The notes under the pieces: generated by a model | Database searches by the model: none | What the model was told of the DNA's origin: nothing | Seen by the model: only the letters and a program-made list of their open reading frames with translations | Origin: Candidatus Altarchaeum sp. | GTDB taxonomy: Archaea; Altiarchaeota; Altiarchaeia; Altiarchaeales; Altiarchaeaceae | Assembly: GCA_018260615.1 (NCBI GenBank) | Contig: JAGWDQ010000053.1 | Location: 1,286 to 65,285, forward strand | Length of the DNA: 64,000 nt | Direction of reading: 5' to 3' | Part shown: one piece after another, positions 20,199 through 32,191 of the stretch | Layout: every line of letters begins with the position of its first letter | Numbering within the stretch: the stretch's first letter is position 1 | Made by a program: the position numbers and the translations under genes

Positions 20199-22994
20199 AT
20201 GGAAAATACAACTAAATTTTTAGATGAACAAATAATTGAATCATGGTCTAATTCAAAAATATTTGAAAGCAATGCAGATAAGAACAAACCAAAATATTTT
20301 ATTACGGTTCCGTATCCCTATACATCAGGAGCGTTGCATATCGGACATGCCCGAAGTTATACTTTGGGAGATGTGACGGCAAGATATTACCGGCTGAAGG
20401 GTTTCAATGTTCTGTTTCCAATGGCATTTCATATAACGGGAACTCCTATACTCGCGATAGCAAAAAGAATAGAAAAAAATGACGAAGGAATGCTCAAGAT
20501 GCACAAGGAATATGTTTCTATTTATGAAAAAGACGAAAGCAAAATCAATGAAATAGTTGAATCATTTAAAAATCCGGAAAATCTTGCAAATTATTATGCA
20601 GGTGTAATAATTGCCGATTTTAAAAGAATGGGTTATTGCATTGACTGGCGGAGGAAATTTAACACAGGTGAGAAATTTTACAATAAATTTGTTGAATGGC
20701 AATTCAAAAAACTCGCAGTTCAAAATTTAATAATCAAGGGAAAGCACGCTGTGTATTTTTGCCCTTCCTGTAACAATCCCGTAACAACCGATGATATAAA
20801 AGGCGGCGATGAATTAGACATTGAAATGAGTGAATACTATTTGCTCAAAGAAAAACTTGCCGGTGAGGACTGCTATTTGGTTGCCGCAACCTTACGTCCC
20901 GAAACAATCTTCGGTATTACAAATTTATGGGTTAATCCCGAAAAAATTTATGTCAAAGCAAAGGTAAATGACGAGACATGGCTCATTTCAAAAAAAGCAG
21001 GCGAAAAATTAAAAAAACAGGGATTTGAAGTCACCGTTATTGAAGAATTTAAAGGAGAAAATTTGAGCGGCAAAAAAGTAATAATTCCCTTAACAAACAA
21101 AGAGGTTGAAATTTTAAGAGCAAATTTTGTTGATGACGACACGGCAACAGGGGTTGTAAATTCTGTTCCCGGGCACGCACCTTACGATTATATTGCCTTA
21201 AGGGACTTAAAAATAAATTTTGAAATTTTAAAAATAATTGACTCAAAGATTAAGATTGAAGAAATTGTTAAAGATATAAAAGACCAAAAGGATGAAGGAC
21301 TTGAAGAAGCAACACAGGAATTATATAAGGATGAATTTTACAACGGAATTATGAATGAAAACTGCGGGGAATTCAGGGGAATGAAAGTGGCGGTTGCCAG
21401 AGAAAAGGTTGCCGAAAAACTTAAATCGCTAAATTTATTAGGCAAAATTTATGAAAATAATATTAAAGACAAGGACGGGAAAATAGTCAAAGCCACATGC
21501 CGATGCGGAACGGAATCTGAAATCAGGGTGCTTGAAGACCAGTGGTTTTTAAATTATGCCGATGAGGGATGGAAAATTTTAGCCCGAAAAATTTTGAAAA
21601 ACACAGCAATTGAGCCGGAAATTTATCGGACTGCATTCATTAACTCAATTGAATGGCTTCACGAATGGTCGTGCACAAGAAACAGGGGACTTGGAACGAA
21701 ATTTCCTTACGACAACAAATGGATGATTGAAAGTTTAAGCGACAGCACAATTTACATGGCATTTTACACAATTGCACATTTATTGCGGAATTTGAGCGCT
21801 GATGAGTTGGATGAGAAATTTTTTGACTATGTGTTTTTAGGTAAGGAGTTTGACGGATGCGAGAAGTATAAGGAAATAAGGGAAACATTTATTTATTACT
21901 ATCCGATGGATGAGCGAAGGACAGGAATAGCCCATATTTCAAATCATCTGACATTCAGTTTGTTCCATCACGCAGCAATATTTCCCGAAAATTTGTGGCC
22001 AAAAAAATTTTCCCTGAACGAAATGCTCGTTGCAGAAGGAAAAAAGATGTCAAAATCACTCGGAAATGTGATTCCCATCAAAAACGCATGTGAGAAATTT
22101 GGTGCCGATACTGTCCGATTACATTTGTGTTATGCGGCAGACTCTTCCTCAACCCTTGACTGGAAAGAAAAAGAGGTAATTGCCACTAAAGCAAAGATAG
22201 AGGAATTCATAAATTTTATAAATTTATTTCAGAATACAAATTCCGCTTGCGAAACAGAAGAAGGTAAAATCAGTGATGTGGACAGATGGCTCATTTCAAA
22301 ATTTAACAGACATTTGGAGGAATTTTTAAATTTAATGGACAAATCCGAAATACGAGAGGCAGTTCAGAAAATTTTCTATGAATTTTTTAATGATATAAAG
22401 TGGTATTTGAGGAGAACAGAACCAAACAAAAAGGTCTTGAAGGAAATTTCCGAACAGTGGGTTAAAGTTATGAGCATATTTATTCCATTTACCTGTGAAG
22501 GACTATGGAAAAAGAGCGGAAAAAGCAATTTTGTCAGTGCAGAGGATTCTTTAAAGGCAGATAAAAATGCAATTAACGAGAATGCTGAAAGTATGGAATT
22601 TATGGTAACCGAATTGATTGATAATATCCGAAATTTTGCCGAATTAATAGGAAAATACAAAAAGCCGACTAATGTTTTCATTTACTTTGCAGAGGACTGG
22701 AAAAGGGAATTGTTTGCAAAAATTATGGGAGGAAAAAACATAAAAGATGTAATGGCTGATGAAAAATTTAAGAAACATTCAAAGGATGTTGTGGCAATAA
22801 TGCAAAAGACCCATAAAGGCGATATTAAATTTATTCCGACTATTGAAGAAGAAGTTAGAATGACTGGGGAAGCAAAGGAGTTTTTAGAGAAAGAATTAAA
22901 TTTAAAGATAGAGATTGATGTTAATGCAGACTACGATCCGAAAGGCACGAGAAAGTTTGCGATGCCATTAAAGCCGGCAATTTATATTGAATAA
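20199..22994 (+). CDS. leuS: leucyl-tRNA synthetase (archaeal type)
   Basis: HIGH motif (ALHIGHARSY) and KMSKS motif; 931 aa. Confidence 0.95.
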   Translation: MENTTKFLDEQIIESWSNSKIFESNADKNKPKYFITVPYPYTSGALHIGHARSYTLGDVTARYYRLKGFNVLFPMAFHITGTPILAIAKRIEKNDEGMLKMHKEYVSIYEKDESKINEIVESFKNPENLANYYAGVIIADFKRMGYCIDWRRKFNTGEKFYNKFVEWQFKKLAVQNLIIKGKHAVYFCPSCNNPVTTDDIKGGDELDIEMSEYYLLKEKLAGEDCYLVAATLRPETIFGITNLWVNPEKIYVKAKVNDETWLISKKAGEKLKKQGFEVTVIEEFKGENLSGKKVIIPLTNKEVEILRANFVDDDTATGVVNSVPGHAPYDYIALRDLKINFEILKIIDSKIKIEEIVKDIKDQKDEGLEEATQELYKDEFYNGIMNENCGEFRGMKVAVAREKVAEKLKSLNLLGKIYENNIKDKDGKIVKATCRCGTESEIRVLEDQWFLNYADEGWKILARKILKNTAIEPEIYRTAFINSIEWLHEWSCTRNRGLGTKFPYDNKWMIESLSDSTIYMAFYTIAHLLRNLSADELDEKFFDYVFLGKEFDGCEKYKEIRETFIYYYPMDERRTGIAHISNHLTFSLFHHAAIFPENLWPKKFSLNEMLVAEGKKMSKSLGNVIPIKNACEKFGADTVRLHLCYAADSSSTLDWKEKEVIATKAKIEEFINFINLFQNTNSACETEEGKISDVDRWLISKFNRHLEEFLNLMDKSEIREAVQKIFYEFFNDIKWYLRRTEPNKKVLKEISEQWVKVMSIFIPFTCEGLWKKSGKSNFVSAEDSLKADKNAINENAESMEFMVTELIDNIRNFAELIGKYKKPTNVFIYFAEDWKRELFAKIMGGKNIKDVMADEKFKKHSKDVVAIMQKTHKGDIKFIPTIEEEVRMTGEAKEFLEKELNLKIEIDVNADYDPKGTRKFAMPLKPAIYIE

Positions 22995-22998
22995 ACGA

Positions 22999-23063
22999 GC
23001 TCACACAAAGACACAGGGACACAAAGATAAGTCATCTGTGACTTTGTGGCTCTGTGTGAGAGC
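22999..23063. repeat. cacaaag-type hairpin repeat
   Basis: ctcacacaaagacacagggacacaaag...ctgtgactttgtggctctgtgtgag; arms ctcacaca/tgtgtgag and cacaaag/ctttgtg; starts 5 nt after the leuS stop. Confidence 0.8.
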
Positions 23064-23129: not shown

Positions 23130-26100
23130 ATGGAGTTACTATTTCCATTTCCGGAAATCCGAAACGGACAAAAAGAACTAATAGATGATATCAAAACCGT
23201 GCTTGAAACAGGAGGCACACTGCTCGCTCACGCTCCAACGGGAATCGGTAAAACAGCAGCCGCCCTGACCCCCTCCCTTGAATATGCCTTAAACAACGAC
23301 AAAATTGTCTTTTTTCTTACATCAAAACAATCCCAGCATAAGATTGTAATTGACACGCTGCGGCTTATAAAAGAAAAAAATAAAGATAATGTCAGCTTTT
23401 CGGTTGTTGACATAATATCCAAGCAGGCAATGTGTCCGAGGGATATTGCACGGGAACATTATGCATTGTTTGATGATCTTTGTCTCCATGACCAGAAAAC
23501 GAAGAAGTGCAGATATTTCAGGAGTGATAAGAACATTACAAACCACATACTGAAGAATATCATGCATGTTGAGGAGCTGAAGGATTTTTGCGCCAGGAAT
23601 GTAATCTGCCCGCACAAAACAGCAAGTGATGCGATATCCGATGCCAACATCGTTATATGTGACTACAACTACATGTTCACGGATATTCTTGAAACCGTTC
23701 TTGAGAAAACCCATAAATCAATCGGTGACCTGATTTTAATCATTGACGAAGCTCATAATCTCCCTGACCGAATAAGAGACCAGCTTTCCGGTGAGCTCAC
23801 AATAAATCTCATTGAAGAAGCAGCGAAGGAAATAAAGTCCGTTGATGAAAAACTTTACAGGTACCTGAAAGGCATTGGCAGGTTTTTTGACGATTTCATC
23901 CGACGTATGCCCGGAAACGCAGAGAAAAACATTAACCGGGAAGATATCACGACAGGAGTTGAGCAGGTACTTCAGGAATCTATTGGCGACAGTATGAGTT
24001 ACCTTGAGTTTGTTGATGCCTTAAAAGCGGCAGGAGTTGAGCTTGCTGAAAAAAAGCAGTACGAGGAAAAAAAGAAATCTTCTATAACTTCAGTAATGGA
24101 ATTTCTTGAGACCTGGAACACCCTGCTTCCGTGCTCGCGGGTTTATAAAAACAAGAACACGCCAACGCTTTCGTTTCGGCTTCTTGATCCGTCAGTACTG
24201 AGCGAGAGCATAATCTCAAACGCTTATGCAACAGTCCTGATGAGCGGAACACTATATCCTGTGGAAATGTACGCTGACATATTGGGGGCAAAGCATTCAC
24301 TACTTAAGCAATACGAATCACCGTTTCCTTCCGAAAACAAAATTGTTTTGGTGACAAAAAAACTCACCACGCTTTACACCGAGAGGGGTGATTCAATGTA
24401 TGGCAATATTGCAGAAAAAATATCAAAAGTCCATGACACAGTTAAAGGGAACATTGCCGTGTTCTTTCCTTCATATTCTCTAATGGATGAAATATACAAA
24501 AAATTTGAAAGCAGCCCCGACTTTGAAATTCGGGACAAAACAGGCGACATCCTCCTTGAGGGGAGGTGCATGAGTAAAGCCGCTAAAGATGAATTATACC
24601 GGAAATTAAAAATAAATTCAAATAAAATTCTGATGGGCGTGCAGGCAGGTTCTCTTTCAGAAGGCGTTGATTACAGGAACAACATTATTCGCGCGGTATT
24701 GATAGTCGGACTGCCATTGAGTCCGCCAACTCTTGAAGTAAAAAATTTGCAGGATTATTACATTAAGAAATTCGGTAAAGAAAAAGGAACGCTCTACGGA
24801 TACATATATCCTGCAATAAGCAAGGTGATACAGGCGGCAGGACGCGGTATCAGGAGCGAAAACGATATCGGAGCGATAATTCTTATGGACTATCGGTTTA
24901 ATTATCCTATGTACAGGAAATGCCTGCCGCCGGATTATAAAATACAGTTTACTGACGAAGCTGAAAAACTGTGCGGGGAATTCTTTGGTAAAGACCTTGT
25001 GTTAAAAGCACTGGAAGATACAAAAAAGAGAGTCATTGAAGAGGAAGACATAAAATTGATGAAAGAAGAAAAACACATCCTTGCAGAATCAAAATCAGAA
25101 ACAGAATCAAAATCAGAAACAGAAAAACAAGAGGTTCAGGATTCAATTCCGGAAATATCAGAAGAAAAAACCGAAAATAACGACAACCCCGGATTAAATG
25201 TATTGCGTTTGATAGAAACCATAGATTTTCCTGCTGGCAGGTCATTCTTAGCAGGTATACTAACCGGTTCCAAATCAAAGGAATTGATAAATCAGAATAT
25301 TGATAAATCAGAATATTATGGAATGCTGAAAGGATACACTCGCGATGAAGCTATTGATATTATAGACCAGATCACAGGTAAAGGTTATTTGGCAGTTAAG
25401 CAGAGTGAAACAGCAAATTTTCCGAGACCTGTTTTATATCTGACAGAGTTAGGTAAAAACGCATTGTGTAATAATGAGAAAATTGGAGTGAAATTGCCAA
25501 TAAAAATAAACCTTAAAAATAGGGTTGAAACATCCAAGAATCCTGAATTATTAAATGAATTAAAATTTTGGCGTAGAAAAGTTGCCGAAGAAGAAAACAT
25601 CCCGGCATATTGCATTTTCCATGATACAACACTAATTGAAATTTCAAATAGCACGCCTTTCACAAAAGAAAATTTAATGAATATTCGTGGATTTGGTGAA
25701 AAAAGAATTGAAAAATACGGGGATGCTGTGCTGGAAATTGTGAAAAAGTATGTATCAAATGTTGTTTCTGAGAGCAATGTAAAAGAAAATCAGGAAAAAG
25801 AGCAGAAAGAAGCAGAAGGACCACCAGTAAATTCCAAAATGGAATCATCTGAAAAATTAATACATGATAACAATTTAACAATGGATAGAATCAACGCAGA
25901 ACATAAACTAAAAGAAATATTTGGACACGGGCATTTTTACGACACACAATGGGAAACCATTAAAAAAATTTTAAATGGTGAAAGGGTTTTATTAATAGAA
26001 AAAACCGGCTTTGGAAAATCATTGTGTTATCAGTTTCCTGCAACTCAGTTTGAAGGAACCACCGTTATTTTTTCTCCGTTAATTGCATTAATGCGCGATC

Positions 26101-27896
26101 AGGTTAAAAAACTCAGTGAATTAGGAATCAAAGCCAAATGTATAAACAGTGAACAGACACCCGAAGAAAATTCTGAAATAATTGAAGAAGCCAAACAGAA
26201 TAAGATAAAAATCCTCTACATCGCCCCTGAAAGACAGGAAAATACCGAATGGATTGATGCCGCAAGACAAATGAATTTGTCAATGGTGGTTATTGATGAA
26301 GCACACTGCATTTCGGTCTGGGGGCATGACTTCAGACCGTCCTTCAAAAGAATAATCAATCTCGTAAACCTTTTGCCCGAAAATTTTCCAGTTCTGGCAA
26401 CAACCGCAACCGCTACAAAAAGAGTTGAAGAGGATATACTTGAACAGATTGGCGGCAGGATAATTTCTCTAAGAGGAAATCTTTTAAGAGAAAATTTTTA
26501 TTTAAGAGTAATCAGGGTTGAATCGGATGATGAAAAGTTAGTATGGGTGGGTGAAAATATAAATTTAATTCAGGGCAGCGGTATTATTTATACTGGCACC
26601 AGAACAAATACCGAAATTTATTCAAGGTGGCTGCAGTCATTGGGCGTTTCATCTGTTGCATATAATGCAGGTCTGGATGCCGAATCAAGAAAACATATAG
26701 AGCAGGGTTTAATGAACAATACATGGAAATGTGTTGTTTCTACTAACGCTCTGGGAATGGGAATTGATAAACCGGACATTCGTTTTATTATTCATACGCA
26801 AATTCCTGCTTCGCCAATACACTATTACCAGGAAATCGGGAGAGCCGGAAGAGACGGAAAACCAACAGAGATAATTCTTCTTTATAGTCCCAAAGATACA
26901 GACCTGCCAAAATCGTTTATTGAAAATAGCAGGCCTTCAACAGATAAATATCAGCGATTCATTGATGCATTAAAATCAGAACCGTTAGGTGAACAGGATA
27001 TTATGCGGAAGACAAATCTAAATCAAACACAGGTCAGGGTTATTAAAGCTGACTTAATTGATCAGAAAATCATCAATGATGTCTATTATAATAAAAGTAA
27101 AAAATGCGAACTCAAAGTAAATGCACCGGAATTAAATTTTCATTCCTTTGAAGAACTTATAAAGACAAAATTTGCCGAATTATATCAGATGGTAGCATAC
27201 TCAGAAACCACCGGGTGCAGAATGAAATTTCTTTGTGATTATTTGGGTGATATCCTAGAAAAAGATTGTGGGAAATGCGATAATGACCGGACAGAACATA
27301 TCTGTGTAAAGTTAACTGATTACTGGAATAATAAAACTGAAGAATTCAATAATAATTATTTTCCTGAATTGTCTGTAGAATCCAAAGGAACTAATATGGT
27401 TGACGGGGTCGCGGCTTCATATTATGGATTTTCAAATGTCGGCTCGGTGATCCACAGATGTAAATATGAAAACGGGGGTGATTTTCCGGATTTCCTGTTA
27501 AAACAAACACTGAAAGCATTTAGAAAAAAAATTAGTAAAGATAAATTTGATTTGCTTGTTTATGTTCCTCCTACGGAGTCAGGTGATTTGGTTAAAAATT
27601 TTGCTGAAAAGATTTCTTACGCCTTAAAGATTCCTGTTTCCCACAAACTCAAAAAAATAAGGGCTATAAAACCACAAAAGATTTTTCAAAACAGTATTTT
27701 AAAAAGAGATAATGTAAAAGATGCATTTGAGTATGAACATCCGGGGGATATTGAAGGAAAGTCAATTCTGATAGTGGACGATATATTTGACAGCGGACAC
27801 ACCATAAAAGAAATTGGCAGATATTTTACTAAATTTGGGGCGGTAAAAATAGCTCCTTTAACAATAGCTAAAACAATCGGAGGTGATTTATCATGA
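23130..27896 (+). CDS. 1588-aa fusion: XPD/Rad3-type FeS helicase + RQC-like WH + HRDC + RecQ helicase + ComF-type phosphoribosyltransferase domain
   Basis: AHAPTGIGKT, IIDEAHNL, Cys cluster, QAAGRGIRS (XPD part); WRRKVAEEENIPAYCIFHDTTL (HRDC); TGFGKSLCYQ, VIDEAHCISVWGHDFRP, CRMKFLCDYLG..CGKCDN (RecQ); VPPTES...GKSILIVDDIFDSGHT (ComF/PRT). Confidence 0.8.
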   Translation: MELLFPFPEIRNGQKELIDDIKTVLETGGTLLAHAPTGIGKTAAALTPSLEYALNNDKIVFFLTSKQSQHKIVIDTLRLIKEKNKDNVSFSVVDIISKQAMCPRDIAREHYALFDDLCLHDQKTKKCRYFRSDKNITNHILKNIMHVEELKDFCARNVICPHKTASDAISDANIVICDYNYMFTDILETVLEKTHKSIGDLILIIDEAHNLPDRIRDQLSGELTINLIEEAAKEIKSVDEKLYRYLKGIGRFFDDFIRRMPGNAEKNINREDITTGVEQVLQESIGDSMSYLEFVDALKAAGVELAEKKQYEEKKKSSITSVMEFLETWNTLLPCSRVYKNKNTPTLSFRLLDPSVLSESIISNAYATVLMSGTLYPVEMYADILGAKHSLLKQYESPFPSENKIVLVTKKLTTLYTERGDSMYGNIAEKISKVHDTVKGNIAVFFPSYSLMDEIYKKFESSPDFEIRDKTGDILLEGRCMSKAAKDELYRKLKINSNKILMGVQAGSLSEGVDYRNNIIRAVLIVGLPLSPPTLEVKNLQDYYIKKFGKEKGTLYGYIYPAISKVIQAAGRGIRSENDIGAIILMDYRFNYPMYRKCLPPDYKIQFTDEAEKLCGEFFGKDLVLKALEDTKKRVIEEEDIKLMKEEKHILAESKSETESKSETEKQEVQDSIPEISEEKTENNDNPGLNVLRLIETIDFPAGRSFLAGILTGSKSKELINQNIDKSEYYGMLKGYTRDEAIDIIDQITGKGYLAVKQSETANFPRPVLYLTELGKNALCNNEKIGVKLPIKINLKNRVETSKNPELLNELKFWRRKVAEEENIPAYCIFHDTTLIEISNSTPFTKENLMNIRGFGEKRIEKYGDAVLEIVKKYVSNVVSESNVKENQEKEQKEAEGPPVNSKMESSEKLIHDNNLTMDRINAEHKLKEIFGHGHFYDTQWETIKKILNGERVLLIEKTGFGKSLCYQFPATQFEGTTVIFSPLIALMRDQVKKLSELGIKAKCINSEQTPEENSEIIEEAKQNKIKILYIAPERQENTEWIDAARQMNLSMVVIDEAHCISVWGHDFRPSFKRIINLVNLLPENFPVLATTATATKRVEEDILEQIGGRIISLRGNLLRENFYLRVIRVESDDEKLVWVGENINLIQGSGIIYTGTRTNTEIYSRWLQSLGVSSVAYNAGLDAESRKHIEQGLMNNTWKCVVSTNALGMGIDKPDIRFIIHTQIPASPIHYYQEIGRAGRDGKPTEIILLYSPKDTDLPKSFIENSRPSTDKYQRFIDALKSEPLGEQDIMRKTNLNQTQVRVIKADLIDQKIINDVYYNKSKKCELKVNAPELNFHSFEELIKTKFAELYQMVAYSETTGCRMKFLCDYLGDILEKDCGKCDNDRTEHICVKLTDYWNNKTEEFNNNYFPELSVESKGTNMVDGVAASYYGFSNVGSVIHRCKYENGGDFPDFLLKQTLKAFRKKISKDKFDLLVYVPPTESGDLVKNFAEKISYALKIPVSHKLKKIRAIKPQKIFQNSILKRDNVKDAFEYEHPGDIEGKSILIVDDIFDSGHTIKEIGRYFTKFGAVKIAPLTIAKTIGGDLS
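27879..27887 (+). promoter_or_regulatory. Shine-Dalgarno GGAGGTGAT for dprA inside the end of the helicase ORF
   Basis: 5 nt upstream of the ATG at 27893, which overlaps the upstream TGA (ATGA). Confidence 0.6.
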
Positions 27897-28846
27897 TTAA
27901 CAGACCGGAAATACCCTGCCTGATGGCATTAACCCACACCCAGGGATGGAAATATGAACAAATTAATAACATCATCGCAAAAATTAAAGGTAATTCAAAA
28001 TGCAGCATTGCAGAATTCTTTGGTTTATCTCCTGATAACTGGATGGATAATTTCGGATTAAGCAAAAAAGAAACACTCCATTTGGAAAATGTTAAAAAAG
28101 AAATACCCAAATACTCTTTTCTGGCAGAAGATTTATTTGCGCAGGGATATGAAATAATACCTGTAAATTCTCCTGAATATCCTGAAACATTAAAACAAAA
28201 TTTAGGATTCAGGTCACCACCCATTCTTTATGTGAAAGGAAATAAAAATTTATTAAAAGAAAAATCTGTCGCAATTGTTGGCTCAAGGGACGCATCGGAA
28301 ATTGCATTGAAATTTACTGACAACATCGCAATGCTAGCGTCAGGAGAACACAAAGTCGTAGTAAGCGGATTTGCCAGAGGTGTAGATAGGCAGGCACTGG
28401 ACTCCGCACTTAAATATAAAGGTAAAGGTCTTATTGTATTGCCGCAGGGAATAATGACTTTTTATTCTGGATTTAAGGCATATTACAGACAAATTGTTGA
28501 AGGAAATGTTCTGGTCTTAAGCACATTTTTTCCAAAAGCACCGTGGAGTGTGGAACTAGCAATGGCAAGGAATTCTGTAATATATGGTCTGGCAGGAGAA
28601 ATTTATGTGGCGGAATCGAATGAAACAGGCGGAACATGGTCGGGAGTCATGGATGGCATGAGAAAGGGAAGAAAGATATATATCAGAAAACCCGAACCGT
28701 ATGAAAATAATGCAAATAATAAATTAATGGACATAGGAGTTATTCCTGTCAGCTTTGAGGGACAGCCAGTTTTAGGATATAAATCATTGTCCCCTGAAAT
28801 TTACCTGGTTAAAGAAAAACATGAAAAAATAAGTAAGCTGATGTGA
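27893..28846 (+). CDS. dprA: DprA/Smf DNA-processing protein A family
   Basis: YPETLK...PPILYVKGN, VAIVGSRDAS, VVSGFARGVDRQALDSAL, ARNSVIYGLA...VAES..GGTWSG follow the DprA Rossmann-domain pattern. Confidence 0.8.
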   Translation: MINRPEIPCLMALTHTQGWKYEQINNIIAKIKGNSKCSIAEFFGLSPDNWMDNFGLSKKETLHLENVKKEIPKYSFLAEDLFAQGYEIIPVNSPEYPETLKQNLGFRSPPILYVKGNKNLLKEKSVAIVGSRDASEIALKFTDNIAMLASGEHKVVVSGFARGVDRQALDSALKYKGKGLIVLPQGIMTFYSGFKAYYRQIVEGNVLVLSTFFPKAPWSVELAMARNSVIYGLAGEIYVAESNETGGTWSGVMDGMRKGRKIYIRKPEPYENNANNKLMDIGVIPVSFEGQPVLGYKSLSPEIYLVKEKHEKISKLM

Positions 28847-28938
28847 GACGATGATTAAGAAGAATAAATTAATTAAATCTTTTAAATATAATTATCCTGA
28901 AATTTTTAATTTATTATTTATTTAAATTTAAAAACATA

Positions 28939-28974
28939 AATTTAATACAAAATTTAATACAAAATTTAATACAA
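28939..28974. repeat. 12-bp tandem repeat x3 (aatttaatacaa) plus degenerate copies to ~28999
   Basis: read directly; lies just upstream of the FtsZ/tubulin-like gene. Confidence 0.85.
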
Positions 28975-29000
28975 ATTTAACAAATTTAACTAAATTTCAA

Positions 29001-30131
29001 ATGTACGCATTTATCGGTATCGGACAGGGCGGCTGCGGATTACTTGATTCCGCATTTTATGACAAGGACTTATTCAAGGTAGTAAAACCAATAGCAATAA
29101 ATTCCACTGCCAAGGATTTGAAAAATTTAAAGAATATAAAACCACAATACTGGCTTGGAATGAGTAAGGATAAGGGATTTATTGACGGAACGACAAAAAA
29201 TTTAGAAAGTTATTTAGTTGGCGGATACGGACAGGACAGAACAAAATCAAAAGACGACGCCGAAAGACAATATTCCGATTTACAGGAAAAAATAAGATAC
29301 TATCTTGAAACACGAACGGCAAAGGGAAAAGAAATGGCAGTCCAGTTTGCATTTTTGATGACATCCCTTGGCGGAGGAACCGGAAGCGGATTAAGTCCGG
29401 CAATTGCAAAAATTTTAAAGGATTTGGGAATATGTGTAATTGCCGTTCTGATTACTCCTGCAAAAAGCGAGGGCTCACTGACTGCAAAAAATGCCGTTGA
29501 GGCATTGAATGAAATTTATAATTATGCTGACTCAATAATCCTCGCAAGTAATGAAAAAATTTCCTATGCCCAGAATATAGAAGCACTATTTTCCCACTAT
29601 AATGATTACATAGCAAGAAGTTTGGTTGATATTTGTGAAGGAATGACACTTGAACAGATTGACCCGGCAAAATTTGAAGGAAACCCGCCTGTAATAGATA
29701 TGAAGGACTTCATTACCGCAACTTCATTTCTTGATACCCATAAGCCCGGATTTTCAGTTATAGGAAGGGCAAGCGACAATGTCAGGGATATGCTGCATTA
29801 TATTTTTCCGGTCGGGGGCTATAAAGAGATTGATGCCATTGGTTTGATTCAGCAGGCGATGCTTAAATTATCTGCCGACATTGATGATAATGCCAGGAAA
29901 AATTTATGCTTACTCCGCCTTCCGCACAGGTATTTAACATCCGAAAGCAGAATGATAAATACAGAGGTTGTGAGAAATTTCCTGCTTGAGAAAACAGAGT
30001 TGAACGAAACACATTTTGGAATATCCTTAACAAAAAGAAATTTAGCAACTGCAACATTGATTTCATGCCATTCCAAAAAGCCAAGGGATTTTGAAATGCT
30101 TGAAGAATCAGCGGAGAAATATAAGGGATAA
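29001..30131 (+). CDS. divergent FtsZ/tubulin/CetZ-superfamily GTPase
   Basis: T1-like GIGQGGCG, tubulin signature SLGGGTGSG, SNE in the DNE position, T7-like VIDMKDFITA; 376 aa. Confidence 0.7.
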   Translation: MYAFIGIGQGGCGLLDSAFYDKDLFKVVKPIAINSTAKDLKNLKNIKPQYWLGMSKDKGFIDGTTKNLESYLVGGYGQDRTKSKDDAERQYSDLQEKIRYYLETRTAKGKEMAVQFAFLMTSLGGGTGSGLSPAIAKILKDLGICVIAVLITPAKSEGSLTAKNAVEALNEIYNYADSIILASNEKISYAQNIEALFSHYNDYIARSLVDICEGMTLEQIDPAKFEGNPPVIDMKDFITATSFLDTHKPGFSVIGRASDNVRDMLHYIFPVGGYKEIDAIGLIQQAMLKLSADIDDNARKNLCLLRLPHRYLTSESRMINTEVVRNFLLEKTELNETHFGISLTKRNLATATLISCHSKKPRDFEMLEESAEKYKG

Positions 30132-30171
30132 ATAAAGTTGTAGTACTGGAAAGTTTGTTTTATTTTATGAG

Positions 30172-30229
30172 CCTCACACGGAGACACGGAGACACAAAGG
30201 GGAAATACACTCTGTGACTTTGTGTGAGC
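30172..30229. repeat. cacaaag-type hairpin repeat
   Basis: ctcacacggagacacggagacacaaag...ctgtgactttgtgtgag; same family and same orientation as 22999..23063. Confidence 0.8.
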
Positions 30230-30235
30230 ATTCTT

Positions 30236-32191
30236 TTATTTTTTAACCGCACCTGCCCAAATCCGTATAAGTCCCTTTGCCTGATTTCTCACATCGCTCT
30301 TTGTCATTCCTGTCTTCAATGCATTAAACGCGAGAATTCCGTAATTTTCTGACTTGTAATCATTGCACGCTTCGTCTATCTTTTCAGCAAGGGAAATTTT
30401 ATCCGGCATGACTTCTCCGTTTTGCGACGGGAAATTTTCATATTCAACCATATACCCGTTTCCTTCAACAACATTGCCATTTTCATCCCTTTTTGCCGGA
30501 TTTAGACGCTCCGGAATTACACCGTCAGCCGTTGCTATTGTAGGTGCTCCGTTTTGCTGTGCTTTTGCATAGCCCGTAGGTCCGGCTTCTTTTCCTTTCC
30601 ATGATAACATTCCGCTAAAATCAGTTCCCTGATTAAGTATGCTGGAATTAAATATATCGTAATTTTTAATAAATACAATGTGTTCTTTCATTCCGGAATC
30701 CCTGCTTATAATTTCTTTAACCCTCTCTTCCTGTCTATTTCCATAATCGTCAAATTTTCTCCCGCCGATAAATATTACAGCATTGTTTTTAATTATTTTC
30801 TCGTTAAATTTTGCATCGCTAATAACATCTAAAACTATATCTACACATTTATAACTAACCAATCTTCTGACAAATGTGAAAAATGGCATACCTAAAAGGT
30901 CAATATTGTTAGTCCTTAATTCATCGCCGGTAAAATTTATTTTTCCGTAAGTTCCTTTGAGCAGTTCGGCAATAAAATTTTCCTTTTGTTGTCTTTTTGC
31001 ATTCATCAGTTCGGCAATAAAATTTTTTTTAAATGAAGGATTATCCTCTAAACTGTTAAATAGCGATTCGTAATTTTTTGAGTCCGTTTTATTCATATAA
31101 CTTTCAATAAGCCCTTTAATTTCTTCTCCCTGCCATCTGTCAATATACGCACCTTCGCTGTTTCCAAATATGTCATCGTAAGCAACCTTTTCTTTAAATT
31201 TTTTAAATATATCATCTTTGAGAACATTTGTATGCATGACGGAACATCCGGTAATCACATCGCTAACCCTTCCGGTAATTTCTGTCAAATCCACAATTTT
31301 GTCATGGACAGTATCACTAAACTCTTCGGATATATTCAATCCGGAAAACATATTAGCATGATAATGAGGAATTCCGGCAGGAACTATTGTGTGGTTGTAG
31401 TGATGAACAATTATATTTTTGAATACCGGATCAGATTTGTATTCATCCTCAACAACAGACGGAATTGCCAGTGTTGTATTTACCTCGCTTGTAGAAAACA
31501 GCAAAACATTATTGTTCGCGTTTTTGTTGTCATCTGATCTTTTTATATGTCCCTCTTTTATTTGTTCTTCAATAAACCTTAAAATAACCTTTCTGTAAAG
31601 CAAACTTTGAACCGCCCTGAAATCATCATCCGAAGTTCCGCAGTATGCCTCGTGAAAAATTTCCGGACAGTAAAGCCAGTACTCTTTTAATTCCGAAAAC
31701 GGATTCATATAAATTTCTACATTTACTTTTTTAATTCCTTTTAAATTTATTTCTACATCTTTATAGACCTTTACTTTATCAAGGGATTCCTTTACTATCT
31801 CAACAATGTCTTTTTTAATTCCTTTTGAAACGATATTACCTTCGCCTTTTATGTATTTTGCATAAAGCACACCGAATACATGCAAATGTCTTCTGGCTTC
31901 AATACTTCCCCAGTATGTGCTCATCACATCATACCAACCTCTGACCAGATCCGGCTTAAAACTACCCAAACCCCCTGCCATAAGAAGTTTTGAAAATTCC
32001 CCGGTGTTGTATCTCGCATCCTCATCGGAACATGTCTTAAATTTAATAAGTTTGTTGTAAAGTTCATTTAAAAATTTCATTGAAAGTTCATATTCCATTT
32101 GAAGTACAAATATGTTTATAGCTCTTATTTTTTCCAGGGCATCAGTTAATGATTTTTCTTTTTCCGCACTGCATGCATCAGCATCATACAT
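30236..32191 (-). CDS. divergent alpha-glucan phosphorylase-like protein (GT35-like)
   Basis: AGGLGS, HHYNHTIVPAG, ITGCSVMH, GKEAGPTGYAKAQQNGAPTIATADG resemble the GGLG, HT.v.AG, NGVS..H and EASGT..MK..NG...DG blocks of GT35. Confidence 0.55.
   Translation of the reverse strand: MYDADACSAEKEKSLTDALEKIRAINIFVLQMEYELSMKFLNELYNKLIKFKTCSDEDARYNTGEFSKLLMAGGLGSFKPDLVRGWYDVMSTYWGSIEARRHLHVFGVLYAKYIKGEGNIVSKGIKKDIVEIVKESLDKVKVYKDVEINLKGIKKVNVEIYMNPFSELKEYWLYCPEIFHEAYCGTSDDDFRAVQSLLYRKVILRFIEEQIKEGHIKRSDDNKNANNNVLLFSTSEVNTTLAIPSVVEDEYKSDPVFKNIIVHHYNHTIVPAGIPHYHANMFSGLNISEEFSDTVHDKIVDLTEITGRVSDVITGCSVMHTNVLKDDIFKKFKEKVAYDDIFGNSEGAYIDRWQGEEIKGLIESYMNKTDSKNYESLFNSLEDNPSFKKNFIAELMNAKRQQKENFIAELLKGTYGKINFTGDELRTNNIDLLGMPFFTFVRRLVSYKCVDIVLDVISDAKFNEKIIKNNAVIFIGGRKFDDYGNRQEERVKEIISRDSGMKEHIVFIKNYDIFNSSILNQGTDFSGMLSWKGKEAGPTGYAKAQQNGAPTIATADGVIPERLNPAKRDENGNVVEGNGYMVEYENFPSQNGEVMPDKISLAEKIDEACNDYKSENYGILAFNALKTGMTKSDVRNQAKGLIRIWAGAVKK

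Follow-up and report, generated by a model that had tools for sequence, protein, structure and literature searches.

What is the gene of a divergent tubulin-like GTPase doing directly behind a helicase and a DprA-like gene in an uncultivated archaeon? The question is raised by tubA, a 376-aa open reading frame (ORF) in a stretch of 64,000 nucleotides from Candidatus Altarchaeum sp. (the genus is called Altiarchaeum below; GenBank assembly GCA_018260615.1, contig JAGWDQ010000053.1, positions 1,286 to 65,285 of the forward strand). This whole stretch is referred to as the window. An earlier note, made from the letters of the window, had taken the gene for a divergent relative of FtsZ, tubulin and CetZ and had offered two readings: an ordinary CetZ-like cytoskeletal gene, or a cytomotive partner of the DNA-processing genes upstream. 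Our comparative analysis leads to a third answer. We consider it probable that tubA is the dispersed member of a membrane-attached system, composed of two tubulin-like proteins (TubA and TubB) and three membrane proteins, and that its position next to the DprA-like gene is incidental.

The description of the ORF holds, with each of its motifs in place. The T1 motif GIGQGGCG occupies residues 6–13 (nt 29016–29039), the T4 motif GGGTGSG residues 124–130 (nt 29370–29390), SNE residues 183–185 (nt 29547–29555) and the T7 motif VIDMKDF residues 231–237 (nt 29691–29711). In an alignment of 46 sequences of the tubA family, all of them sit on conserved columns: T1 on G6, G8 and G11, T4 on G124–G130, SNE on N184 and T7 on D233 and D236. 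The invariant columns are G128, P153, N184, N201 and D236, and the near-invariant ones are G6, G8, G11, G74, G75, G77, G124–G130, N164, D183 and D233. Column 183, where the earlier note had compared SNE with the DNE of tubulins and CetZ, is D in ≥90% of family members and S in the Altiarchaeum branch. All nucleotide-binding loops and both acidic residues of T7 (D233 and D236) are kept in tubA. The T7 acidic residues activate GTP hydrolysis in the polymer. Purifying selection on the gene is strong: the ratio of nonsynonymous to synonymous substitution rates (dN/dS) is 0.05–0.08 at dS of 0.4–1.0, whether or not the upstream cassette discussed below is present, and each of the four genomes of the genus has an undamaged copy of the ORF.

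Membership in the tubulin/FtsZ superfamily is clear from residues 4–187, which match the Pfam family Tubulin (PF00091) above its cut-off (E 5.4e-22); the same Pfam scan finds no C-terminal family domain in the protein. Across the family, CetZ_C (PF21011) is matched by 0 of 46 members at a threshold of E ≤ 1, the window protein included, and neither FtsZ_C (PF12327) nor Tubulin_C matches any of them. Positive controls for CetZ_C do match (P0054, 4e-54; L060, a Hydrothermarchaeota CetZ, 5e-65). Against the NCBIfam ftsZ model TIGR00065 the protein scores 78.4 bits, the cut-off being 295.2, and does so over residues 114–216 only. Its sequence matches in the PDB, to FtsZ and CetZ, are likewise confined to T4–T6 (residues 115–188, best E 1e-12). 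A whole-library phmmer search finds about 30 representative clusters that match tubA over its full length at E < 1e-28, below which the score drops sharply to FtsZ proteins matching only residues 115–215. As a side observation, some family members of 535–720 aa (P0088, P0042, P0043 and P0089) carry a C-terminal extension that is either beta-rich (PEGA/CarboxypepD_reg-like) or a zinc ribbon; a tubA-like gene of this extended type is also found in another Altiarchaeota family (G056:C33:1629-2816), in a genome without tubB.

The AlphaFold2 (AF2) model of TubA, with a predicted local distance difference test (pLDDT) score of 93 and a predicted TM-score (pTM) of 0.92, consists of a tubulin/FtsZ GTPase domain, an activation domain and a single C-terminal helix, in this order. 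Foldseek returns 1124 PDB matches at E ≤ 0.001 for this model. The top four are CetZ chains (3zid, 4b45 and 4b46; query TM-score, TMq, 0.70–0.73; E 1e-23), followed by archaeal and bacterial FtsZ (0.63–0.68) and TubZ (0.61–0.69), so that the margin of CetZ over FtsZ is small; no tubulin is among the top 50. In a maximum-likelihood (ML) tree of 53 rows (IQ-TREE, LG+C20+F+G4 with posterior mean site frequencies, PMSF), support, given as ultrafast bootstrap (UFBoot)/SH-like approximate likelihood ratio test (SH-aLRT), is 100/100 for FtsZ, 100/100 for tubB, 98/93 for the CetZ clan and 100/99 for tubA. The CetZ references are Hydrothermarchaeota CetZ proteins and one other. The window protein falls within an 11-row tubA subclade (100/98), outside the FtsZ and CetZ clades, and a quick tree gives the same groups. 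Hydrothermarchaeota genomes hold seven superfamily genes, namely two FtsZ, two CetZ bearing CetZ_C, one short CetZ relative, tubA and tubB. tubA is therefore not a canonical CetZ, since it has no CetZ_C, forms a separate clade and coexists with canonical CetZ in the same genomes. With archaeal FtsZ1 and FtsZ2 it shares the superfamily, whereas it lacks FtsZ_C, stays below the TIGR00065 cut-off and lies outside their clade. The earlier placement of the protein as a divergent FtsZ/tubulin/CetZ-like GTPase was thus correct, and we can add that it belongs to a distinct family of the superfamily, neither canonical CetZ nor FtsZ.

In related loci, among them those from a search with the 17 closest tubA-family sequences as queries, the tubA orthologue heads a conserved five-gene cluster. 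About 20 loci show it, in Hydrothermarchaeota and in metagenome-assembled genomes (MAGs) labelled Methanobacteriota or “archaeon”; at least 16 are complete and the others partial on short contigs. One further complete cluster lies in a MAG labelled Bathyarchaeia, which is possibly mis-binned. tubA, the gene for a protein of ~460 aa and tubB (~445 aa) follow each other in the same direction, and two genes for proteins of ~320 aa and ~660 aa are divergent from them. Stop and start codons overlap in several loci, both between tubA and the 460-aa gene and between the 460-aa gene and tubB. In Hydrothermarchaeota the cluster is found on chromosome-sized contigs of 0.6–1.9 Mb. Hydropathy profiles of the three other products are those of membrane proteins: the ~320-aa and ~660-aa proteins are of type I, with a signal peptide and a large ectodomain ahead of a single C-terminal transmembrane (TM) helix, after which a short, conserved tail reaches into the cytoplasm; in the ~460-aa protein, two TM helices at the N terminus precede a long helical (coiled-coil) cytoplasmic part. 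Pfam has no family for any of the three.

The tubA orthologues of these clusters are 44–53% identical to the window protein, and the window ORF is in turn the best match of cluster tubA proteins (50–53% identity). Profile matches for tubB and for proteins of 456, 323 and 666 aa are found elsewhere in the genome of the window (Table 1), with lengths and topologies that agree with those of the cluster proteins. As judged from these matches, none of the five genes has been lost in Altiarchaeum, and each lies on a contig of its own. The partners are intact and highly conserved, tubB being 94–98% identical within the genus. The phyletic pattern agrees with a partnership. Among 38 Hydrothermarchaeota genomes, 23 have both tubA and tubB, none has tubA or a tubA-like gene only, one has tubB only and 14 have neither; among 61 Altiarchaeota genomes, both genes occur in four (the whole genus), a divergent tubA-like gene only in two, tubB only in none and neither gene in 55. 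tubA and tubB thus co-occur almost perfectly across these 99 genomes (both in 27, tubA-like only in two, tubB only in one, neither in 69; Fisher's exact test, 8e-21, with no phylogenetic correction).

TubB is homologous to TubA (hhalign 98%, 20% identity) and is itself well conserved, with a mean column identity of 68%. GGGTGNG is invariant in the family, as are D255 and D258 of the T7-like TIDVADY; T1 is deviant (SGEGANR), and the “EWGF” at the C terminus is conserved. With a pLDDT of 81, the AF2 model of TubB is of moderate confidence; two long helices and the “EWGF” tail form its end. Foldseek places OdinTubulin (TMq 0.71), gamma-tubulin and BtubB (0.64–0.71 for the three) above FtsZ (0.55–0.57), a result that is suggestive only. 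Compared with the eukaryote-type tubulins as a whole (tubulin, BtubA/B, OdinTubulin and artubulin), TubA differs in having no Tubulin_C, and it is the partner TubB whose best matches are OdinTubulin and gamma-tubulin.

On these grounds we propose a mechanism for the system. TubA would form head-to-tail polymers that depend on GTP, either by itself or with TubB. The coiled-coil TM protein of ~460 aa would tether the filaments to the membrane, and the two ectodomain proteins would couple them, through their cytoplasmic tails, to the cell envelope. A system tethered and coupled in this way would therefore have a role in cell shape or envelope organisation, analogous to CetZ or MreB-RodZ, and not in DNA processing.

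Several points weigh against this proposal. Polymerisation, the interaction between TubA and TubB and membrane tethering are deduced from homology and from the genomic surroundings. In Altiarchaeum the five genes no longer lie together, and the partnership may have changed there. The Altiarchaeum TubA has lost the C-terminal tail of the Hydrothermarchaeota orthologues (LKVLEEYEKDF-like) and has the S183 described above, so that details of the mechanism may differ in this genus. Transcription may also read through into tubA from psyrA, the DprA-like gene. Finally, the phylogenetic placement that the earlier note had called for covers FtsZ and CetZ, against which TubA forms its own clade, and supports the clades themselves but not their deep branching order; for eukaryotic tubulin, artubulin, TubZ and PhuZ, the relation to TubA is judged from Foldseek only.

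A bolder version can be put forward tentatively. It is possible, though doubtful, that TubA and TubB form an obligate pair, perhaps a heteropolymer, and that together with the tether and the ectodomain proteins they constitute a third archaeal cytoskeleton of the tubulin type, separate from FtsZ and CetZ, in which cytoplasmic filaments are mechanically linked to the envelope. If this were true, such a cytoskeleton would be common to Hydrothermarchaeota, to Altiarchaeum and, in expanded form, to haloarchaeal megaplasmids, and its genes would have been scattered and yet all retained in the double-membraned Altiarchaeum.

The haloarchaeal relatives are tubA-like genes, 30–33% identical, on megaplasmids of Halobacterium salinarum R1 (pHS2), of three Halobaculum and of Natrinema. 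These matches come from a plasmids-only collection (5/5 on megaplasmids), and chromosomal copies are outside its scope. The megaplasmid clusters contain a triad of a tubA-like (1e-87), a 463-like (1e-27) and a tubB-like gene (1e-78) within larger clusters, and the ML tree places the haloarchaeal proteins inside the tubA and tubB clades. Two of the clusters are listed in Table 1; in that of H. salinarum R1, OE_RS12060 is tubA-like and OE_RS12040 tubB-like. As an observation in its own right, the gene order there is an unknown gene of 630 aa, an “FtsZ” of 540 aa, an unknown gene of about 455–510 aa, the tubA-like gene, genes of 83 aa, 352 aa and 690 aa (the last 463-like), the tubB-like gene of 407 aa and a protein of >900 aa; the tubulin-like genes are all annotated as “cell division protein FtsZ”. 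Because related clusters exist in the genetically tractable H. salinarum R1, the system is open to experimental study.

Parts of the family have been noticed before. A survey by Santana-Molina, del Saz-Navarro & Devos (2023, PMC9871819) reported “CetZ-like” sequences in Altiarchaeota, as no other paper we found does, and haloarchaeal tubulin-like “Halo.Tub” genes that occur in quasi-tandem copies, with coiled-coil genes of unknown nature around them. The megaplasmid clusters fit the description of “Halo.Tub”, and the two groups presumably correspond to the clades found here. The survey gives neither a function for them, nor a partner set in Altiarchaeota or Hydrothermarchaeota, nor a five-gene cluster, and in the literature we found no paper on the cluster or on any function of the tubA family. 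The family as such was therefore already known as “CetZ-like”, and the five-gene set is new relative to the literature found. The five co-inherited genes are testable candidates for linking tubulin-like filaments to the archaeal envelope.

Could tubA instead be an ordinary housekeeping CetZ paralogue that shapes the cell by itself, with no dedicated partners here? CetZ (Haloferax volcanii CetZ1 and CetZ2, PDB 4b46 and 4b45; Methanosaeta thermophila, PDB 3zid) is indeed the nearest fold, and these three structures are the best matches of TubA (TMq 0.72–0.73); the gene stands alone in this genome, and the name used in the survey points the same way. Like CetZ, TubA has an archaeal host, is encoded outside any division cluster and likely has a membrane-associated cytoskeletal role. 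It differs in having only ~20% identity to CetZ, no CetZ_C and a clade of its own next to the canonical CetZ of Hydrothermarchaeota. Its conserved partners are tubB and the three membrane proteins, with strict synteny and co-occurrence elsewhere and with all partners kept in Altiarchaeum. The closeness of the fold thus survives from the earlier reading of an ordinary CetZ-like gene, and its ordinariness does not; we regard a solitary CetZ as unlikely.

A segregation motor of the TubZ type, for a chromosome or a megaplasmid and with the membrane proteins as anchors, would account for the megaplasmid location of all five haloarchaeal matches and for the similarity of TubA to TubZ structures. TubA does resemble the TubZ/TubR/tubC and PhuZ systems in being a divergent GTPase of the superfamily outside the division machinery, with some homologues on megaplasmids. 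However, tubA is chromosomal, with leuS upstream, its partners are membrane proteins with large ectodomains, and its structural similarity to these systems is lower than to CetZ. We found no TubR-like DNA-binding adaptor in any cluster; centromere repeats were not searched for. Furthermore, the Hydrothermarchaeota clusters sit on large contigs, a collection of phages has no homologue of tubA, and the plasmid collection could return plasmids only. We consider a segregation motor highly unlikely.

FtsZl-1 (Tubulin_2, PF13809; Makarova & Koonin 2010, PMC2875224) offers another comparison, as its operon also encodes a VWA protein, a GTPase and OmpA-family proteins. Unlike it, TubA scores 19.4 bits with Tubulin_2 against a cut-off of 27, and the VWA, GTPase and OmpA partners are absent from the clusters. 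Side by side with this we note a paralogous tubulin cluster in the same genome (C80:9500-23200, L014). In it, a tubA-like gene of 393 aa, whose product shares 31% identity with the window protein, comes immediately after a 322-like gene; further members are a weak tubulin-like gene of 413 aa, a Tubulin_2 gene of 988 aa (FtsZl-1-type), a 662-like gene of 794 aa and a WD40 protein.

We now return to the neighbourhood that gave rise to the question. The proposal that TubA is a cytomotive protein working with the helicase and DprA genes (a TubZ-like DNA mover, or else a third component of PsyrTA) has real features in its favour: tubA follows the DprA-like gene on the same strand after 154 bp, as had been noted, the arrangement is repeated in one further strain (L021), and the block from helicase to tubA has a copy of a hairpin repeat at either end. 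The “RecQ-ComF helicase plus DprA” pair is, however, a PsyrT/PsyrA toxin–antitoxin (TA)/defence cassette, its PsyrT match spanning positions 5–688 of the 689 of the PADLOC profile. This corresponds to the PsyrTA (RqlHI) TA/anti-phage pair, with neighbours that match it and vary between strains, and tubA is not part of that system. PsyrT here differs from standard PsyrTA, as it continues in frame from a gene for an XPD-RQC-HRDC helicase, the two together forming a 1588-aa ORF.

The interval between leuS and tubA exists in three states in the genus: empty, with the XPD helicase only, or with the XPD helicase fused to PsyrT and followed by PsyrA. L021 has the same arrangement as the window (leuS, XPD-RQC-HRDC fused to PsyrT, PsyrA, and a tubA 95% identical). 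In L020, leuS is followed by a separate 874-aa XPD-RQC-HRDC gene and then by tubA (96% identical), with no PsyrT or PsyrA. In L017 and L018, tubA (89% identical) comes directly after leuS, and XPD, PsyrT and PsyrA are all absent. A more distant orthologue, 73% identical, has quite different neighbours (L019). Neither dprA nor a helicase lies near tubA in ~25 other loci or in the 23 Hydrothermarchaeota genomes carrying it. Synteny with dprA and the RecQ-ComF gene, which the earlier note had asked to be checked, is thus limited to the window and L021, so that one of the two observations it had named as contrary to its own proposal, the lack of conserved linkage to dprA or the helicase genes, has been made. 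Since the interval has three states, the constraint on tubA is equal in all of them, tubA has no PADLOC match and phages carry no homologue, we take the adjacency to be incidental and give hardly any credence to a partnership with these genes. Setting aside a motor for DNA uptake or repair avoids a false lead, and the locus becomes a clear example of a defence/TA cassette that has entered a variable spacer, next to a conserved gene to which it is unrelated.

That tubA is a decaying orphan, left without function after the cluster broke up, might be read from the dispersal, the lost tail and the replacement of D183 by S, and is barely credible in view of the intact ORF in 4/4 genomes, the low dN/dS (with dS reaching 1.0), the retention of the residues for catalysis and nucleotide binding and the intact partners.

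Table 1. Positions of tubA, its flanking features in the window, the partner genes in the same genome and two haloarchaeal clusters.
Feature	Location	Strand	Remarks
tubA	29001–30131	+	376-aa tubulin/FtsZ-superfamily GTPase, CetZ-like fold, distinct family
leuS	20199–22994	+	Conserved upstream anchor
Hairpin repeat, upstream copy	22998–23063		Between leuS and helicase ORF
XPD/DinG-type helicase with RQC/HRDC	23130–25829	+	Front part of 1588-aa ORF; neighbour
PsyrT, RecQ-ComF (phosphoribosyltransferase, PRTase)	25830–27896	+	Half of 1588-aa ORF; PADLOC 2.4e-268; neighbour
PsyrA, DprA fold	27893–28846	+	PADLOC 6.7e-74; Pfam DNA_processg_A; neighbour
AT-rich spacer	28847–29000	+	154 bp; presumed tubA promoter
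Hairpin repeat (like a miniature inverted-repeat transposable element, MITE)	about 30168–30230		Between tubA and convergent minus-strand 651-aa gene
tubA, own genome	C53 (window contig)		
tubB, own genome	C114:16791-18122		Hidden Markov model (HMM) 2e-172
456-aa protein, own genome	C64:1406-2776		HMM 3e-47
323-aa protein, own genome	C68:53126-54097		HMM 1.5e-56
666-aa protein, own genome	C79:29122-31122		HMM 4e-130
L087, co-directional tubulin cluster	Halobacterium salinarum R1 plasmid pHS2, NC_010369.1 176661-191803		
L088, co-directional tubulin cluster	Halobaculum magnesiiphilum plasmid		

A TATA-like ATTTAA lies ~25–30 nt upstream of the tubA ATG, and the AT-rich region before the ATG is kept in 5/5 Altiarchaeum versions, regardless of the gene upstream; tubA is probably transcribed from its own promoter in this spacer. 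No Shine-Dalgarno sequence precedes the ATG, so the mRNA is probably leaderless. A scan for sigma-70 promoters and intrinsic terminators gave 4 sites versus 5.7 expected and 0 terminators and has no bearing here, the host being an archaeon. The spacer also holds the 12-bp repeat of the earlier note, which is real, with 4.7 copies instead of the three described (unit AAATTTAATACA, 28924–28980, 91% matches, Tandem Repeats Finder). One sister genome retains only part of this microsatellite and the others lack it, for which reason we rejected it as a conserved regulatory element.

The closing hairpin after tubA was also rightly recognised, and the repeat has a second copy upstream (Table 1), with which it aligns directly at 79% with an indel between them. 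The downstream copy has a stem of ~18 bp (-28 kcal/mol, z = -2.5) and a T-rich run after it, and is likely a bidirectional terminator. Different hairpin repeats are found in the spacers of the leuS–tubA interval in different Altiarchaeum loci.

Two minor observations concern other genes. The genome contains an uninterrupted ORF of 832 aa (C60:8578-11073, +) with two full FtsZ modules (Tubulin x2, FtsZ_C x2), followed by a third FtsZ gene (C60:11255-12181, +). The double-FtsZ fusion is intact and 84–87% identical in 4/4 genomes of the genus. All three FtsZ modules fall with a single archaeal type of FtsZ; of the other type, none was found in the genome, which is 87% complete. In the window, the gene convergent with tubA (30236–32191, minus strand) encodes a protein of 651 aa with only weak matches to carbohydrate phosphorylase (E 1e-15) and glycosyltransferase group 1 (6.5e-06), and we regard it as an atypical GT-B enzyme.

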